Virus genome (UHGV): UHGV-0263858
DNA length: 28,280 nucleotides
DNA from: a virus
Direction: 5' to 3' (one strand)
Shown here: in pieces, positions 19,087 to 25,668 of the stretch
Layout of the letters: each line of letters opens with the position of its first letter
Position numbering within the stretch: position 1 is the stretch's first letter
Made by a program: the position numbers and the translations under genes
Notes under the pieces: model-generated
What the model was told of the DNA's origin: nothing
The model's database searches: none
The model's input: the letters and a program-made list of their open reading frames with translations, nothing else

Positions 19087-21003
19087 TTATCCTCCACTCA
19101 GTGCAGCCGCGATTTCTTCCAGACTCATCTCATCGTCGTCCTGCTCATCTCTTCTGGCACGGGCCAGAGCTTCAAGATCCAGCTGCCACCGCTGAACTGA
19201 AATACGCAGGGCAGCATAGGCATATACCAGGCAGTCGAGGGCTTCGTTGCGTCGCCCTTTTTTATCCCACAGCAGTTTCACCCTGCCATTAACCACCTTC
19301 TCCACCAGCTCTTCCGCCACGATCTGACGCGCCTCTTCTTCCGAAAAAATGTCGGGGTTATCCGGAAAACGGAAGGTGTACGGGGCGGCTTCACTGGCAG
19401 AGACCACTGGCAGGGCAAAACGGGCGTACAGCATTTCCTTGACGGTATCGGAGCCCACCTCACACAAAAACACACCACGCTGGTTGCGCTTTTTGGGCAT
19501 GGTGATCACCGGCTTGCCGTACACCGATGCCCCTTTTATGGGAAGCACAAAAAAAGTGCCGTGTTTCCTTGAACGCTGATACACAATGTCCTGGTCGATA
19601 CCACCGGTATCCCAGCAGACACGGGAAATGGAAATTTCAGTACCGTCAGCATGACGATATTTTTTCCGGATCACCGTATCAACACGTTTAAGGGTGTCCT
19701 CGTCTTCCGGTCGCCCCATGATAATTTGCTTATCAATCAGAAAGGCTTCTTCGCCGGGAGCCCAGCCCCAGACATAAATTTCATAGCGATCTTTCTGGGA
19801 GTCGATCCCGGCAGTCAGGTAAACCACCCGCAGGGGAACCTGCGCGCCATAGTGGCAGACCTTTTCCAGTAACAACTCAAAGCTCAGTTTTTCTGCCACA
19901 GCCTCTTCATAGGGCTCCCCGAGCGTGGTGTTAATAAACGTCTTGACGCCGTTCGGGTCCTTCAGCGCATCCAGCCAGTCGTAGACAATCTGCACCCAGG
20001 TGGTGAATGGACTGTACGCCGTCCAGATGTGGTACGAAATTGAGCGCGGTGGCGGTATCTCCTCATCACCGGCGCTGTAAAATGTCAGGCCATCACGCGT
20101 CCACATCCCGGTATTGTCACAAATCCAGCGTCCGTCGGTCTGGTCAAGTTCCGACTGCCGGATCACACAGCCATTATGTTCACACAGGTAATACACCGTT
20201 TCCGGTTTACCCTTCTCCCATTTCAGGCCAGACGGCGTCGCATCATCGCCAAACTTCAGATACTGGGCCTCCCCGCAATGAGGGCAAGGGACATAAAACC
20301 GCATGAAATGCGCAGATTCATTCGCGGCTTTCTCAATCTGGCAGGAACCTTTGATTTTTGGCGTTGAGCCACGTATGGATTTAGGCCATACCGAGCCTTC
20401 GATACGTTTATCACCAAGCAGCGTCGGCGAGCCTTCTTTTTCCACATCCGGTTCAAACGAGGAGAGTTCGTCATAGCAGACCACATCCACAGATTTTTCA
20501 CGGTAGTTTTTAGCTGCGGCACCGCCCAGGCACCAGAACCCCACACCGGAGGAAAAACGCTTCAGGGTGAGTGTATTATCGCGGTGTTTTCTTCCGAACC
20601 ATGGAGCCAGCTCCAGCAATGCAGGGACATCCCTGATCGTTGGCTCAACATGAGATTTCATGAAATCTTCTGCCGCAGAATCTGTTGGCTGAAAAAGCAG
20701 ACTGTTACGGGATTTATGCTCAATAAAATAAGCCTCCACCCCCAACAGCATTTTGGTGTAACCAACGCGCGCCGATTTAATCAGATTAACGGTGCGGATC
20801 CGGTCATTTCCCATGCTGTTCATAATGGCAACCTGAAACGGCAGGGTTTCCCATTGTCCGGGAGTGTATGAAGATTCTTTCGGCAGATAATAATGTTGAT
20901 CAGCCCACTGAACCGTCGTCAGTGGAACCGGAATATTGAGAGATAAAAGCCCTGTAGCTATCGCACCGGCTGCATTAGCTGCCTTCTGTGCGTCTGAAAT
21001 CAT
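19087..21003 (-). CDS. terminase large subunit (lambda gpA-like)
   Basis: Identity to lambda A along the whole length ([25 protein letters not shown](T/S)[111 protein letters not shown]). Start set at ATG 21003 (SD AGGTGG); the ORF track extends to 21045. Confidence 0.93.
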
Positions 21004-21523
21004 CAATCCACCTGCCCACGTTTTCACCGGCGTTAGCTGCAACATTGGAGGCTTTCGCGATTTCAGTTTTCACCGCATCAAGGTGTGACGGTGAAATATC
21101 CGGATATTTACGCTGTAATGTCAGCGGCACACGTACAAGTATCCCCGAAATCTCCTGTGCCACACGTTGCAGAATGAAGGTAAACAATTCCGTTTCCAGC
21201 ACCAGCCCTTCTTCACGGGCATTTTTCAGCTCCTGTGCGTCAGCCTGTGCTTTGGTGAGCCGGTAGCGTTCATAGTCAATGGTGCCGGGTTGTAAATCTG
21301 ATTCTGCAGCCGCACGCAAATCTTCCAGTTCTTTGCGGAGCTTTTCGTTTTCGATATCAGTTTCTCTCTGCGCGTACCACTGAATTGCCATCGCGGTATC
21401 AAACACCGATTCAACACCCTTGCTACCTCCGGAGACGCAAGATAGCCCCTGAGACTGCCAGCGTTCAATCGTTCGCGGATCCACGTTGAAAATTTCAGCA
21501 AGTTTCTTTTTGTTAACTTTCAC
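20975..21523 (-). CDS. terminase small subunit (lambda gpNu1-like)
   Basis: [25 protein letters not shown]...[48 protein letters not shown] matches lambda Nu1. Start is probably GTG at 21523; the ORF track begins at TTG 21541. Confidence 0.85.
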
Positions 21524-21547
21524 AATACATTTCTCTATCAAATACAG

Positions 21548-21602
21548 GGTCCGACATGAAAACGCTTAAAATGCCCTTTTTCGGGTGTTTTCATGTCGGA
21601 CC
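21548..21602. repeat. 16-bp perfect inverted repeat (GGTCCGACATGAAAAC ... GTTTTCATGTCGGACC) with 23-nt spacer, just upstream of Nu1
   Basis: Read directly; followed by TTTTACT on the plus strand. It lies where a cos/terminase-binding region would be expected, but cosN itself is not identified. Confidence 0.4.
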
Positions 21603-21884
21603 TTTTACTGATGTGATATCAGAAAAAACAAATAGTTATGCGCGAGAAGTACCGACATGCTTTTTCCTGAAAAATTTTCATAAATAGCGCGTTTTTGCGC
21701 GTGCTATGACCCCCGGTGTTTCAGATTTCAGAAAGGACCCGCACAAGTGAGAGCATTTATCATTAACATTTACAGATAAGATGACGCACGTCATTGAAAC
21801 ACCATTCAGTCCTATACCGGCAGCATCCGTTGTTGCACTCCGTAACTCTGCTACTAAGGTTAAAAGCATGGCCATCTTTTGCCA

Positions 21885-21926
21885 CCGGCAAATCTTCAAT
21901 GGATTTCCCCTGCCGGTTTTTTATTT
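21885..21926 (+). terminator. plus-strand intrinsic terminator-like hairpin (CCGGCA ... TGCCGG then T6)
   Basis: Stem 21885-21890 with 21911-21916, then TTTTTTATTTTCG. There is no convincing plus-strand CDS upstream, so it may end a small RNA or antisense transcript. Confidence 0.35.
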
Positions 21927-22107
21927 TCGTCGATGCGTAACATTGCATTCACATCAAGAGCAGCTATTGTCATTAGTATGTTGCATCAATGCATGGGTGG
22001 TATTGGCGGTCTTCGCCGGCCGGTTCTGTGTAGCTGCTCCCTGTGACCGGTTTTTTATTTCTCACATTACAGCATCCCCTCAGAGTGAAGGGCTGCTGTA
22101 ATGTCTG

Positions 22108-22407
22108 TTACTCAGTAACTACCGCACCTTCCGGTAATTCCATACCGGCAAATACCGGACAACCAGGATGACGATCAGCTTCTGTTGCTTCCAGCATTGA
22201 CTCACCAAACCACTCCGTCGTGGCACGACCATCAGCTGCTTTGTAGTGGATCAAGTACTGGTTTTCGCCATCCGCATACTGCGCACGGGCTTTAACCTCA
22301 CCCCATTCATCACTGATGCGCATCTCCACCAGTTGAGACAACTCAAACTTAAACGGAGCAGCATCAGCACCAATTACAATCGGTTTGTTTTCTGTTGTTT
22401 CCATCAT
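22108..22407 (-). CDS. hypothetical acidic protein (99 aa)
   Basis: ATG-ATG start at 22407 with SD CAGGAG. Followed by a 10-bp inverted repeat (CATTACAGCA / TGCTGTAATG, 22065-22103). Family not recognised. Confidence 0.55.
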   Translation of the reverse strand: MMETTENKPIVIGADAAPFKFELSQLVEMRISDEWGEVKARAQYADGENQYLIHYKAADGRATTEWFGESMLEATEADRHPGCPVFAGMELPEGAVVTE

Positions 22408-22492
22408 CGTCTCCTGATATCTAATCCCGCCGCCGCACCGGGCGGTGGCGCACCCTTCATTTTTCAGCAAAATATTCTGCTCTTACAGACGA

Positions 22493-22675
22493 TCAGTTCT
22501 GCACACACCGTCGAACGCCATCAATAAGCTGACAGACCTGAGACGCGGTATCGAAAAGCTGGCGCGCCTTATCCAGGCTGACGCATCCCACCAATAAAAA
22601 AGGCACCAGTATCGCTACCAGTGCCCATTTCGCCGCCACTCGCGGTATTCTGTGTGTCCAGTGTTTTCGGCTCAT
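22493..22675 (-). CDS. small lipoprotein (60 aa; signal peptide with lipobox L-V-G-C)
   Basis: MSRKHWTHRIPRVAAKWALVAILVPFLLVGCVS... The mature part of about 30 aa has two further Cys and is not Pro-rich, unlike Rz1-type o-spanins. ATG lies 1 nt after the upstream ORF stop. Confidence 0.5.
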   Translation of the reverse strand: MSRKHWTHRIPRVAAKWALVAILVPFLLVGCVSLDKARQLFDTASQVCQLIDGVRRCVQN

Positions 22676-22676
22676 G

Positions 22677-22763
22677 TCACCACCAACGCACAGCCCAAAT
22701 CAGAACAGCGACCGCCACAAGGCGGATTGCAAAGGCCGTTGCCCGAATAAAATCAGCACTCAT
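22677..22763 (-). CDS. putative 28-aa hydrophobic peptide
   Basis: MSADFIRATAFAIRLVAVAVLIWAVRWW. The ATG overlaps the stop of the upstream ORF (ATGA). Below the ORF-track size cutoff and could be non-coding. Confidence 0.3.
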   Translation of the reverse strand: MSADFIRATAFAIRLVAVAVLIWAVRWW

Positions 22764-22957
22764 CTGTTTAAATAAATTGTTGTGTATGCAACCAGTGCAG
22801 TACAAATAATCCATGCAACTGGCGTCAGTATATGTCTGATGCCCCGGCATACCGCGATGTTTTTTGCGGCATCATCAGCCCCCTGCGGGGTGGTTTCTGC
22901 TTTTATCATCAGATCATCTCCAAATTTATCTTTCGTCGTGTTAGGCTTTACTGGCAT
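22760..22957 (-). CDS. small tail-anchored membrane protein (65 aa)
   Basis: Start chosen at ATG 22957 (MPVKPNTTKDKF..., SD GGGGA); the ORF track extends to 22999 inside the terminator hairpin. Has a C-terminal hydrophobic segment WIICTALVAYTTIYL. Confidence 0.45.
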   Translation of the reverse strand: MPVKPNTTKDKFGDDLMIKAETTPQGADDAAKNIAVCRGIRHILTPVAWIICTALVAYTTIYLNR

Positions 22958-23001
22958 GAATGATCCCCATGCACATTCACAAAATGAATCCATAAACACA
23001 A

Positions 23002-23040
23002 AGCCCCGATTGCTCCAACAACAACCGGGGCTTTGCTTTA
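23002..23040. terminator. hairpin terminator immediately after the endolysin gene
   Basis: Stem AGCCCCG / CGGGGCT (23002-23008 with 23026-23032) followed by T-rich sequence on both strands, 10 nt after the endolysin stop. Confidence 0.5.
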
Positions 23041-23041
23041 T

Positions 23042-23419
23042 TTATCGTTTCAACTGAAAGTGAGGCCCGTCTTTCAGTGTTTTCCAGTCCCCGCCCCATT
23101 CGATGGCTGTTCCCAGCTCTGCGGCAGCCTGCTTAAATGCCTGCGCGATTTTCTCGTACAGAGGCCAGTCCCATGACACCTGGCTGCCAACCCAGGCAAC
23201 AACATCCACCGCATCACCGGTCAGGTGGCGGCTGTTCATGGTCTGGCTTTTCCCTTCCGCGACCAGCTGTTTCTGGCGTTCTTTCGTGCGCAGCCCTTCC
23301 GTAATACCGAAATCAACCTCCGTCAGCTCCAGCGCACGGCGAACGACAGCAACCAGCTGTGGTTTAACGCCCTCCAGATTCTTTTCGCTGCGACGACTAA
23401 ATCTGAATTTACCCGACAT
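23042..23419 (-). CDS. endolysin, L-alanyl-D-glutamate peptidase (T5 Lys-like, peptidase M15 family)
   Basis: Start at ATG 23419 (SD GAGGTG). SEKNLEGVKPQLVAVVRRALELTEVDFGITEGLRT...HLTGDAVD matches T5 endolysin (SEKQLATVKPELQKVARRALELSPYDFTIVQGIRT...HITGDAID). Confidence 0.8.
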   Translation of the reverse strand: MSGKFRFSRRSEKNLEGVKPQLVAVVRRALELTEVDFGITEGLRTKERQKQLVAEGKSQTMNSRHLTGDAVDVVAWVGSQVSWDWPLYEKIAQAFKQAAAELGTAIEWGGDWKTLKDGPHFQLKR

Positions 23420-23421
23420 AT

Positions 23422-23697
23422 TCACCTCAACAATGGAAAGATTTTTGTGACGTTCCCGCGTGCGCGTATCACCAGCACGCAGAACAACAGATTAAAAAAC
23501 ACTTCCAGCCAGCCCGTTGCTAACGGGCGACCACACAGATAGCTGAGGGGCGCAAAGGCATACAGCAGTATCAGCAGCCAGGCCATCCATGACACCAGCG
23601 GTTTATGTCTGGAATCACGGCGACGATAAAAAAAGAGCGTCAGCACGATAATCGTGCATAACGCCACATTCAGCAATCCGGGAAGGTTACTTAACAT
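23422..23697 (-). CDS. membrane protein with three predicted TM segments (holin or antiholin candidate)
   Basis: Start at ATG 23697 with strong SD GGAGGAGG. 91 aa, three hydrophobic segments. Sits between the holin-like and endolysin genes. Confidence 0.55.
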   Translation of the reverse strand: MLSNLPGLLNVALCTIIVLTLFFYRRRDSRHKPLVSWMAWLLILLYAFAPLSYLCGRPLATGWLEVFFNLLFCVLVIRARGNVTKIFPLLR

Positions 23698-24079
23698 TGC
23701 CGCCTCCTCCACCCCGCAGGCGGGAGAACAAGCCGGACACCAGTGATGCGATATCCTGCTGGTGGATGAACGACAGAATCTTCACCGACACCACCGCCAC
23801 CAGCACCGCACACAGTGCATCCGCAGATGTACCGTCATAACCTGTTTTTGATGCAATCCAGGCTGACAGCACATGCGCACCCAGCACGCCAACGATAAAC
23901 GACACCAGAAAATGCGCCGCCACACGCCAGGCTGAAAGCGCCTGCGGCATCGTTGCCACAAATAACGCCCCGGCGAACGCCCCAAACACAATCCCGAAAT
24001 CCGTTCCGGTAAACAGCCCGAATACCGTCGCCCCGCCGAGCGCCGCAGCCGTACCGGAACCGGACAAGGGTTCAGACAT
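23687..24079 (-). CDS. holin-like membrane protein (Gly/Ala-rich TM segments)
   Basis: Start at ATG 24079 (MSEPLSGSG, SD GGAGAAAAAG), not the ORF-track start at 24229. 130 aa with three or four TM segments; first gene of the lysis cassette. Confidence 0.55.
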   Translation of the reverse strand: MSEPLSGSGTAAALGGATVFGLFTGTDFGIVFGAFAGALFVATMPQALSAWRVAAHFLVSFIVGVLGAHVLSAWIASKTGYDGTSADALCAVLVAVVSVKILSFIHQQDIASLVSGLFSRLRGGGGGNVK

Positions 24080-24096
24080 ACTTTTTCTCCTGTAAA

Positions 24097-24128
24097 TAAA
24101 AAAGGGCCACCAGCGGCCCATAAAAAAA
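24097..24128. terminator. hairpin (GGGCC-ACCAGC-GGCCC) flanked by A-run and T-run, immediately upstream of the holin-like gene
   Basis: Read directly. On the minus strand the hairpin is followed by TTTTTTATTT and then the holin SD. Confidence 0.45.
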
Positions 24129-24167
24129 CACCCGTCAAAGGCACCCACAGATACCTTTTGTGTGGTG

Positions 24168-24320
24168 TTATTCAGATTTACGCAGTAAAGGCCAGAGTAC
24201 GGCCAACGCCATCGCCACCAGCACACCATCTGCCAGCACCGACATCAGCCGTCCGGTGAAATCCACCGCCACTACCAGAAACAGCAGGACGGCAGCCAGC
24301 ACAAGGCGCGCACTTTTCAC
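24168..24320 (-). CDS. putative small two-TM protein (50 aa), GTG start overlapping the TerB-like stop
   Basis: Manual translation VKSARLVLAAVLLFLVVAVDFTGRLMSVLADGVLVAMALAVLWPLLRKSE with GTGA overlap. Could instead be a non-coding leader. Confidence 0.3.
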   Translation of the reverse strand: MKSARLVLAAVLLFLVVAVDFTGRLMSVLADGVLVAMALAVLWPLLRKSE

Positions 24321-24742
24321 AGGTACTGCTCCAGCGGCAACTGCAGCGCCTGAGCAATTTTCTTGAGCTGCGCTTCTTCATCCGGACCAATGCCGTCCTG
24401 GTCAGCAATATCGAGACACAGGCACAGCACATCAACCGCTTCGGCGGTTCCTGCCACATCAGCCAGTTCACGTAAAGCCTGAGCATTCGCACTACGAGGT
24501 GACGCTTCATAACGGGCGCGGATATTTGCACTCATTTGTGCAATCTCACCGGAGAACGGCGCAAAGGCAGGAAGTGCTGCAATGGTTTTTTCCAGTACAG
24601 CGATTTCTTTCGCATCACAGGTGTCGTCGGCGAATGCTATGGAATACGCGCCCCAGACGGTCGCCTCCACTGCGTCGCGGTTCTCCATCTTCTTAACTTC
24701 GGTAATGGCCTTGCGGGTTTTCTTTTTGAAAATACCAAACAT
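24317..24742 (-). CDS. TerB-like (tellurite-resistance TerB family) protein
   Basis: Start at ATG 24742 (MFGIFKK, SD AAGGAAAA). 141 aa; the architecture and C-terminal DGIGPDEEAQLKKIAQALQL resemble TerB (DGNFDDDEKSAVREIARSLGF). Confidence 0.5.
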   Translation of the reverse strand: MFGIFKKKTRKAITEVKKMENRDAVEATVWGAYSIAFADDTCDAKEIAVLEKTIAALPAFAPFSGEIAQMSANIRARYEASPRSANAQALRELADVAGTAEAVDVLCLCLDIADQDGIGPDEEAQLKKIAQALQLPLEQYL

Positions 24743-24880
24743 CGTGACTTTTCCTTTTAGTGGGTGAGCCTCGCCCCGGGATGAGCAGCCCACAGAGAAA
24801 GTCACACTGACCATCCCGTAAGCTCACCCCTGAAAGGCTCTGTGGTTTTTTTGATGTGCGCCGGGCGTGGCGCGGAAATA

Positions 24881-24903
24881 AAAAAGGCCCGCCGTAGCGA
24901 GCC
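24881..24903 (-). terminator. intrinsic terminator (first of a tandem pair downstream of the tRNA cluster)
   Basis: Minus-strand stem GGCTCGC / GCGGGCC with one G-U pair and loop TACG, followed by TTTTTT. Confidence 0.45.
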
Positions 24904-24925
24904 GCATAAATACTGAATTCTGAAT

Positions 24926-24950
24926 AAAAAAAAACCGCCTGGCGTGGCGG
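24926..24950 (-). terminator. intrinsic terminator (second of the tandem pair)
   Basis: Minus-strand hairpin CCGCC-ACGCCA-GGCGG followed by T9. Confidence 0.6.
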
Positions 24951-25110
24951 TCTATGGCATAAAATGGCATGAAGAGAACGCGATGATTTTATTATGACCA
25001 GAGACGTCGGATATCTTCCGATGCATATACTTCTGAATGGACACTATCGTTTTCCGCTCATGGATTTTTTTAATCTATCTTCGCATCGACGAGTACTCCT
25101 GGGTATTATT

Positions 25111-25191
25111 TACAATACCGGAATGGTGCATCATCGGCCCCGCAAGGAAACATAAAAACCTCTGACGATAATGCACCATTCCAATACTGTA
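25111..25191. repeat. long inverted repeat (perfect 12-bp core GGAATGGTGCAT / ATGCACCATTCC, imperfect extension to about 20 bp)
   Basis: Core arms at 25120-25131 and 25171-25182, read directly; flanked by TACTGTAA direct repeats (25191-25220). Confidence 0.5.
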
Positions 25192-25308
25192 AAAATGGCA
25201 CCGGTACTGTAATCACATCTTCATATTACAGAACAGGACGGGTTAAATCGTTAGGGTAAACGTCCCACCAATAAAGTGCGGTGCCTAAAAACAGTTTAAC
25301 ACTTTCGC

Positions 25309-25383
<75 letters not shown>

Positions 25384-25499
25384 ATCCTGGAACTCGGCTA
25401 CCTGATTTTCATTCTGCACTGAATATCGAGAGAAGCTCTCTTTATTCGAGCCGGTAAGCGAACTTATCGTCTCGGGCTACGCCATCGCGTGGCCGAAAT

Positions 25500-25584
<85 letters not shown>

Positions 25585-25592
25585 GGACTTGA

Positions 25593-25668
<76 letters not shown>

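Follow-up and report, generated by a model that had tools for sequence, protein, structure and literature searches.

A short lipoprotein gene in the Rz/Rz1 position of a phiP27-like prophage lysis cassette

The window analysed here is the complete 28,280-nucleotide stretch of the virus genome UHGV-0263858, and the region in question, positions 22,493 to 22,957 on the minus strand, carries three small genes downstream of the endolysin gene, termed p65, p28 and p60. The lipoprotein p60 alone is the noteworthy object among them: an orphan gene of wide distribution, it occupies the spanin slot and has been catalogued once as an outer-membrane spanin subunit (o-spanin). Bases 22080-23060 are 100% identical to the chromosome of Escherichia coli STEC005 (NZ_CP041437.1), in which p60, p65 and p28 carry the accessions WP_064484544.1, WP_178085947.1 and WP_032285253.1, and to judge from this match the source element is a phiP27-like prophage of that strain. 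The nearest isolated phages are the Shiga toxin 2e (Stx2e) phage phiP27 and phiSTEC1575-Stx2k, with approximately 92–93% identity across the lysis region.

Read along the minus strand, a DNA methylase gene, three tRNA genes and genes for TerB and DUF3927 proteins precede the lysis genes, and beyond the p65/p28/p60/p99 region lie packaging genes of the lambda type (Nu1, gpA and portal). The p60 region appears to be the distal end of the late lysis operon of the prophage. The cassette opens with a holin-like gene of the Phage_holin_8 family (23687..24079; 130 residues in the PGAP call, ‘putative holin’; PF16931, E = 1.7e-22; phrog_198, holin), which is followed by a second one of the Phage_holin_3_7 family (23422..23697; 91 residues; PF05449, E = 2.1e-21; phrog_217, holin; also called by PGAP) and by the gene of an M15 metallopeptidase endolysin without a signal or signal-anchor-release sequence (23042..23419; Peptidase_M15_4, E = 3e-12; phrog_465, endolysin, E = 1e-75; also called by PGAP). 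An initial annotation, made from the sequence alone, had placed a terminator after the endolysin gene. A strong 17-bp hairpin does follow the stop codon (22998..23036; GUGUUUAU; -29 kcal/mol, z = -6.45), but its U-tract is weak and a consensus terminator scan did not list it.

The small genes come next on the same strand: p65 (22760..22957), encoding a C-terminally anchored membrane protein of 65 residues; p28 (22677..22763), encoding a hydrophobic peptide of 28 residues that ends in VRWW (phrog_4493, E = 1.5e-6); p60 (22493..22675), encoding a 60-residue prolipoprotein (phrog_7528, E = 5e-35); and p99 (22108..22407), encoding a soluble acidic protein of 99 residues. All four open reading frames (ORFs) of the initial annotation are thus found on the minus strand at these positions, and PGAP calls the identical three small coding sequences in the STEC005 chromosome. 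Their description as membrane-targeted likewise agrees with the hydrophobic segments of p65 and p28 and the lipobox signal peptide of p60, and the p28 ATG overlaps the p65 TGA in the ATGA arrangement that had been described.

Pairwise Nei–Gojobori ratios of nonsynonymous to synonymous differences (pN/pS) were calculated for related loci from IMG/VR, GTDB genomes and E. coli genomes. In the annotated frame pN/pS was 0.23 for p60 (62 distinct sequences), 0.16 for the p65 core (15 sequences, with a pS of 0.57) and 0.23–0.28 for p28 (8–9 sequences), in comparison with 0.12 for the endolysin and 0.30 for the holin, and the two shifted frames of the same DNA gave values of 0.98–2.35. The p65, p28 and p60 genes are under frame-specific purifying selection and are thus real genes, not chance ORFs. 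A 57-residue frame overlapping p65 was considered as the true form of p28 and rejected; the 28-residue form is preferred because the overlap is constrained in the p65 frame instead.

The signal peptide of p60 is 30 residues long and comprises a basic n-region with the widely kept motif RKHWTHRxPR, a hydrophobic core and the lipobox LVGC. The protein had been described as containing cysteine and not being rich in proline; indeed, the lipobox Cys31 is joined by Cys48 and Cys57, and the mature part of 30 residues, CVSLDKARQLFDTASQVCQLIDGVRRCVQN, contains no proline. In an alignment of 23 diverse members, down to 37% identity, the positions M1, L23, L27, G30, Cys31, Cys48 and Cys57 are invariant, with lipobox variants L[V/A/M]GC and a cysteine spacing of C-x8-C or C-x9-C. 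Position +2 in these members is V, A, T, S, G or E and never D, and sorting to the outer membrane is predicted because no member has Asp at +2. The AlphaFold2 model is a single, featureless helix spanning residues 12–59, of modest confidence (predicted local distance difference test score 67), which agrees with the 83% helix computed for the phiP27 orthologue by Kongari et al. (2018; PMC6139136). The mature part has a net charge of +1, no hydrophobic segment and a hydrophobic moment of approximately 0.4–0.5.

The p60 family is small in sequence space and confined to one bacterial order. A word-indexed search gave 149 clusters, all from E. coli, Salmonella, Citrobacter, Cronobacter or Yersinia and all named only ‘hypothetical’ or ‘lipoprotein’. 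A profile search over 1.84 billion representatives returned 22 relatives, all from Enterobacterales and 44–71 residues in length apart from a few evidently frameshifted or mis-called ORFs, and gave no link to a larger or named family. Neither p60 nor p65, p28 or p99 matched a family in Pfam, NCBIfam or PADLOC, and their PHROGs matches were to families of unknown function only. A PDB sequence search gave nothing beyond a spurious designed-repeat match, an Rfam scan of 21400-24400 gave nothing above noise, and a literature search with the sequences and accessions of the small proteins found no papers. The literature on type 10 secretion systems that was checked makes no mention of small lipoproteins.

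The position of p60 is tied to the endolysin gene. It lies downstream of an endolysin gene in 92/92 of the loci fetched through p60 itself, and in 86 of these it was found downstream of both a holin_3_7 gene and an endolysin gene, M15 or GH108, without exception (86/86). The contexts span backbones that are lambdoid, phiP27-like or Mu-like, with endolysins of two types and holins of three families or more. In a Mu-like phage with Mor, GemA and a Mu portal, the order is holin_8, holin_3_7 and GH108, followed by p60 with a 4-nt overlap; in a lambdoid, Q-controlled element holin_3_1 and M15 are followed by p60 after a 3-nt gap; and at a third divergent locus GH108 is followed by p60. The genes flanking p60 at the divergent loci encode soluble proteins. 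Since both the holin and the endolysin families vary between contexts, no phage protein is a constant companion of p60. The lambdoid arrangement was seen in two sequences (L133, a JGI 3300044669 contig, and L134, Logan SRR35360100; loci are designated here by L numbers), which run from a Q antiterminator gene through holin_3_1, M15, a p60 of 37% identity and an alpha/beta-hydrolase gene to tail genes (Dit-like and wedge); the stretch shows neither head nor terminase genes and may belong to a tailocin-like element.

For a sample unbiased with respect to p60, IMG/VR was searched with the M15 endolysin alone and the 80 best loci were taken. Some form of the p60 layout is present in 70/80 of them. 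The commonest arrangement is the simplest one, in which the endolysin stop codon, a 14-nt spacer and the p60 ATG follow directly upon each other (49/80); at a further 16 loci p60 stands behind a small peptide gene of the RWW type, at four behind a reverse-strand gene of 90 residues, as in phiP27, and at one behind p65 and p28, as in the window. A lambda-type Rz with embedded Rz1 takes the place of p60 at 4/80 loci, neither p60 nor Rz/Rz1 is found at 6/80, and the two occur together at none (0/80). Across all fetched loci, 178 have p60, 17 have Rz/Rz1 and 0 have both. The exchange can also be seen against a common flank, as p65-core and p28 precede p60 in the window and in L090-L096, and precede Rz/Rz1 behind a lysozyme-type endolysin in L005 and L107-L118. 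The initial observation that the position matches that of spanin genes is therefore borne out, in that the p60 slot holds Rz/Rz1 in sister cassettes.

The earlier view of the three small ORFs as one cassette did not survive this comparison: the commonest layout lacks p65 and p28, the pair also stands before Rz/Rz1, and p65 occurs among tail genes. The only hydrophobic stretch of p65 spans residues 43–61 and is followed by just ‘NR’, and that of p28 spans residues 11–25 of 28. The conserved core of p65 is KDKFGDDLMIKAETTPQGADxAAxIIAVCRGIRHILTPVAWIICTALV, while its N-termini vary; the family consists of 26 clusters from E. coli and Salmonella only, all named ‘hypothetical’, and some copies are frameshifted. 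Three settings are seen for it, namely ahead of p60 in cassettes of the phiP27 type, ahead of Rz/Rz1 in those of the lambda type, and between tail- or baseplate-like genes beside RWW/RWR peptides. Loci of the last kind (L099 2983-3580 and L120 2579-3159), from other prophages, hold p65 homologues and two or three other small C-terminally anchored peptides, some with RWW/RWR ends, far from lysis genes, and the cluster looks like a mobile set of small membrane-peptide genes.

The p28 peptide is a shortened member of the RWW family (PHROGs 4493, 1115 and 3246, all of unknown function), the other members of which have 37–71 residues and share the C-terminal sequence RAxAFAIRLVAVAVLIWAVRWW or variants of it. 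The index of the assembly collection has 4,369 blocks with the 37-residue form, which stands 1 nt upstream of p60 in every place read; at one of the four Rz/Rz1 loci of the M15 sample (L206) an RWW peptide gene lies directly upstream of Rz. In the window the p28 stop is likewise 1 nt before the p60 ATG (22677-22690). This junction of RWW stop, 1 nt and ATG, TGGTGGTGAnATG, thus precedes either p60 or Rz (the latter in L206, approximately 2430-2450), and Citrobacter L008 (3985-4003), where there is no peptide ORF, has a similar sequence, GTTGGTGGTGATATG, as a bare 5′ leader before p60. The junction may be a shared ribosome-binding or translational-coupling element, in which case the 3′ end of the p28 gene would supply the ribosome-binding region of p60; given the leader without an ORF in L008, part of the conservation of the RWW stop may therefore reflect the ribosome-binding region of the next gene.

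Judged by sequence and gene context, p65 and p28 are real but optional and separately mobile genes, the products of which are small C-terminally anchored inner-membrane peptides rather than spanin subunits, and they are dispensable for p60 because most cassettes lack both. They would ride on a mosaic segment inserted between the endolysin and lipoprotein genes, the 5′ edge of which is marked by the 23036..22998 hairpin; an equivalent hairpin with a better U-tract heads a p37-type insert in L136 and L010. The two peptides may modulate the membrane or the timing of lysis. When they are compared with holins and antiholins, the transmembrane segment and the cassette location are present, but the genes are optional and no holin profile matches them. 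Lcc6 of the Shewanella phage LambdaSo, a lysis factor of 65 residues, was considered as a relative of p65 and rejected: it has an N-terminal transmembrane domain, is encoded in another part of the genome and showed no similarity.

The three small proteins had been said not to look like Rz/Rz1 spanins, and indeed none of p65, p28 and p60 is similar, by sequence or by architecture, to Rz, Rz1 or a unimolecular spanin. No spanin match was found for the small proteins in Pfam, PHROGs or NCBIfam, no similarity to Rz/Rz1 was found in the window, and an hhalign comparison of p60 with lambda-type Rz1 aligned the signal peptide only, at 19% probability. In common with o-spanins, p60 has a lipobox without Asp at +2, a location in the lysis cassette and periplasmic cysteines, C48 and C57, the disulfides of which are putative; it lacks a cognate i-spanin (inner-membrane spanin) gene and homology to an experimentally characterised o-spanin family. 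Neither p65 nor p28 has the i-spanin topology of an N-terminal transmembrane domain and a coiled-coil periplasmic domain. A unimolecular spanin is not indicated either, since p60 has a lipobox but no C-terminal transmembrane domain. Its lipobox and charge of +1 set it apart from a disruptin, which is strongly cationic and amphipathic and has no lipid anchor, and it shows no match to Lysis_col, the colicin lysis protein family, or to any Pfam family at E ≤ 0.1.

The phiP27 orthologue of p60 has already been listed as an o-spanin by Kongari et al. (2018), and the present finding is therefore partly pre-empted. In that bioinformatic listing PhiP27 is a singleton in both the i-spanin and the o-spanin tables, with an o-spanin of the ‘separated’ kind, and the combined periplasmic length of the pair, 62 residues, is the shortest among the two-component spanins surveyed (PMC6139136). 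By the supplementary coordinates, the o-spanin is a 51-residue form of the p60 orthologue and the i-spanin is a TTG-initiated ORF of 64 residues at 20348-20542 (PMC6139136). The latter (L001 3877-4071, plus strand) lies antisense to a conserved 90-residue gene of phrog_36812 and has no PHROG match itself. In L063, moreover, the antisense gene is kept at 46% identity and the ‘i-spanin’ frame has collapsed to 36 residues, and the segment is absent from the window and from most relatives. The pattern suggests that the published phiP27 i-spanin is an antisense shadow ORF and probably not a gene. With that call unsupported, p60 stands alone. No i-spanin-like gene, with an N-terminal transmembrane segment and a periplasmic domain, was found beside p60 in any fetched context: its neighbours are soluble, or have C-terminal anchors that leave three residues or fewer outside the membrane. 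A lipobox scan of the complete phiP27 genome found no other small lipoprotein, only the p60 orthologue and a 275-residue lipoprotein with Asp at +2 near int.

The annotation of phiP27 is in need of correction in two respects: the published ‘i-spanin’ is unlikely to be a gene, and the lipoprotein gene is missing from the RefSeq record. In that record (L130, NC_003356.1) P27p32 (20630-20785) runs out of frame across the real lipoprotein gene at 20679-20861, which is unannotated; P27p31 (20136-20351), which runs into the 3′ end of the endolysin gene, may be spurious too. In a survey of Shiga toxin (Stx) phages, Rz was reported in 277/279 and a canonical metallopeptidase endolysin in two (Pinto et al., 2021; PMC8136144); these counts would fit the p60 picture if the two phages without Rz are the two with the metallopeptidase.

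Taken with its position, the inferred co-transcription with the lysis genes, the predicted sorting and the mutual exclusivity with Rz/Rz1, p60 is proposed to have an outer-membrane lysis role. Co-transcription is suggested because there is neither room for a promoter of its own, the spacer of the direct layout being only 14 nt, nor a signal for one, no sigma-70-like promoter having been found in 21400-24400. That p60 is a stand-alone outer-membrane disruption factor made late in infection is a reading to which we give about even chances. On this proposal the protein would be exported by Sec, lipidated at Cys31 and cut by signal peptidase II, and the Lol system would then deliver it to the inner leaflet of the outer membrane. 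The mature protein would be a largely helical lipopeptide of 30 residues with two conserved cysteines, made alongside the holins and the M15 endolysin, and it would breach the outer membrane as the last step of lysis once the wall has gone. It would act without a phage-encoded i-spanin partner, destabilising the outer membrane either directly or via a host factor, as do colicin-release lipoproteins.

Colicin lysis or bacteriocin release proteins are prolipoproteins of approximately 45–52 residues, with a mature part of approximately 28 residues and conserved signal peptides, that permeabilise the envelope without an inner-membrane partner; their genes lie on plasmids under SOS control and are not known to be paired with a holin and an endolysin. 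The p60 protein shares only size and lipoprotein nature with them, and the profile test was negative. Lambda Rz1 is also 60 residues long. In common with it and with other o-spanins, p60 is a small prolipoprotein with outer-membrane-type sorting and periplasmic cysteines that occupies the slot after the endolysin; unlike Rz1, it is not adjoined, overlapped or enclosed by an i-spanin gene, and its mature part is 30 residues, helical and proline-free, whereas that of the o-spanin Rz1 is 40 residues and proline-rich. T4 PseT.2 is likewise not proline-rich and has a predicted C-terminal helix and two close C-terminal cysteines, both of which are needed (PMC6139136). However, PseT.2 has approximately 80–100 residues and works with the i-spanin PseT.3, whereas p60 has no such partner and no PHROG or profile hidden Markov model similarity to it. 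Like T1 gp11, p60 fills the spanin slot as one gene and has its lipobox at the N-terminus, but T1 gp11 continues into a periplasm-spanning, beta-rich domain and a C-terminal transmembrane domain, whereas p60 ends after 30 mature residues. Finally, phiKT gp28, the ‘disruptin’, is, as p60 would be, a small single protein in place of spanins, and it disrupts the outer membrane in a phage without spanins; but gp28 is described as a cationic antimicrobial peptide (bioRxiv 10.1101/515445), in contrast to the lipoprotein p60 with its mature charge of +1.

A number of points weigh against p60 as a stand-alone disruptor. Six of the 80 sister cassettes lack both p60 and Rz/Rz1 within 1.5 kb, and therefore either the slot is not strictly essential or those elements are defective. 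The mutual exclusivity of p60 and Rz/Rz1 could partly reflect allelic replacement of a DNA segment, and the loci, most of which come from closely related Enterobacterales prophages, do not count as independent events. The known spanin mechanism cannot, on the estimated dimensions, apply to p60, because a 30-residue helix of approximately 4.5 nm is too short for the periplasm and an inner-membrane partner is lacking; the alternative proposed here has no direct support, and no experiment on any member of the p60 family was found in the literature searched. In addition, the mature part is weakly cationic (+1) and moderately amphipathic, unlike the disruptin gp28, and it has no sequence similarity in Pfam to colicin lysis proteins. 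At the four loci with neither gene that were inspected (L177, L179, L180 and L184, 1880-2950), only short, non-conserved ORFs precede the packaging genes; these prophages may be defective, or an outer-membrane factor may be encoded elsewhere in them.

Disruption of the outer membrane is the least understood step of phage lysis. Spanins, which fuse membranes across the periplasm, and one cationic peptide are its only known agents, and phages without a recognisable spanin make up approximately 13–15% of those with Gram-negative hosts (PMC6139136; bioRxiv 10.1101/515445). A more far-reaching suggestion, which we advance tentatively and with less confidence than the stand-alone role itself, is that the p60 lipopeptide is a third kind of phage outer-membrane disruptor besides spanins and the disruptin, minimal, partnerless and independent of any periplasm-spanning complex, replacing Rz/Rz1 behind varied holins and endolysins in lambdoid, phiP27-like and Mu-like phages. 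Within that suggestion, the unusually conserved 30-residue signal peptide may be a second, inner-membrane product, as in bacteriocin release proteins. The family is common and is found in Stx2e- and Stx2k-converting phages. Were the proposal correct, the need of an outer-membrane lipoprotein for a periplasm-spanning partner would require revision, a lipopeptide of 30 residues would provide a very small genetic tool for outer-membrane permeabilisation, and there would be a bearing on the release of Shiga toxin from phiP27-type lysogens.

The best-surviving alternative is that p60 is a late outer-membrane lipoprotein without a lytic function, a receptor mask or superinfection exclusion factor that would prevent the adsorption of progeny to debris. 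T5 Llp and phi80/N15 Cor are precedents: they are small phage outer-membrane lipoproteins with disulfides that act on FhuA, and their genes adjoin receptor-binding or tail genes. The p60 protein is itself a small lipoprotein of the outer-membrane type with conserved cysteines, the family is tiny and confined to Enterobacterales (22 among 1.84 billion), as is often the case for accessory genes, and the six sister cassettes without either p60 or Rz/Rz1 point the same way. However, p60 differs from Llp and Cor in being tied to the endolysin whatever the tail type: the linkage is kept across lambda-type Nu1/gpA/portal, phiP27 myovirus tail and Mu-like modules, and is not with tail or receptor-binding genes. 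Moreover, a non-lytic function does not account well for the exclusivity with Rz/Rz1, PADLOC gave no match, and since p60 has no promoter of its own and has terminators upstream, no expression in the lysogen is expected. We regard this alternative as unlikely.

More doubtful still is a true two-component spanin of which p60 would be the outer-membrane subunit and in which the partner, so far unrecognised, would be an RWW peptide such as p28, p65, a holin-like protein or a host protein. The listing of the phiP27 orthologue as a separated o-spanin speaks for it, as do the RWW peptide genes immediately upstream of p60 at many loci, with stop and start 1 nt apart, and the two C-terminal cysteines recall T4 PseT.2 (PMC6139136). 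However, several observations speak against it. No gene at all lies between the endolysin and p60 in the direct layout (49/80), RWW peptides also precede complete Rz/Rz1 pairs, the anchors of p28 and p65 are C-terminal with at most three residues beyond, the holin and endolysin families differ between contexts, and the published i-spanin ORF is probably an antisense shadow. Furthermore, 30 residues plus a few would be too short for the periplasm. This makes a hidden partner improbable.

That the small ORFs are not translated and only accompany conserved elements of the DNA or RNA, such as terminators or recombination junctions, is suggested by a conserved hairpin and U-tract with suppressed synonymous change in p60 codons 17–28 and by the doubling of the p28 end as the p60 5′ leader (with its counterpart in Citrobacter L008 that lacks a peptide ORF), but is very hard to reconcile with frame-specific purifying selection on all three ORFs, abundant synonymous change outside the hairpin, the retention of lipobox and cysteines by the p60 of L131, where the hairpin is absent, and a p65 protein core kept at a pS of 0.57.

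The element embedded in p60 (22591..22626, minus strand; terminator scan; -19 kcal/mol, z = -3.1) consists of a hairpin of 10–11 bp with a GNRA loop followed by U6, within the signal peptide codons 17–28. Synonymous diversity in the hairpin is 0.063, 3–5 times lower than the 0.16–0.34 of the other p60 segments, and the rare stem variants that were checked keep the pairing. A single loop base distinguishes the 35-nt element of Lelliottia L009, where protein identity is 59% and the flanks are heavily substituted. The hairpin is weakened in L135, replaced by another hairpin of 7 bp in L133 and absent in the Mu-like L131. It looks like a candidate intrinsic terminator or attenuator inside a coding sequence, and in the direct layout it would be the first candidate terminator after the endolysin. 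The hairpin as the sole cause of p60 conservation was considered and rejected, as the Mu-like L131 lacks it and keeps the protein features.

Downstream of p60 follows p99, which had been described as an acidic protein and has a net charge of -11, no hydrophobic segment and a pN/pS of 0.22 (phrog_1935, E = 4e-59); PGAP starts it one codon later, giving 98 residues. It is a frequent but not constant neighbour, present at only part of the p60 loci, and a role for it in lysis is at most putative. Just past the p99 stop lies a further hairpin (22060-22104, minus strand; -26.9 kcal/mol, z = -6.7), without a minus-strand U-tract; the A-rich run after it is a T-run on the plus strand.

Two further observations concern the element and its relatives. 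The record PP818812.1 (L003), ‘Actinobacillus phage vB_Apl-pPE4’, has approximately 91% nucleotide identity to the E. coli prophage lysis region, p60 included, and its recorded host, Actinobacillus pleuropneumoniae, looks odd. Between the methylase and the holin genes, at 24317-25668, the window carries tRNA-Thr, tRNA-Tyr and tRNA-Gly and then the TerB-like and DUF3927 genes, and at the matching position phiP27 carries tRNAs and stx2e.

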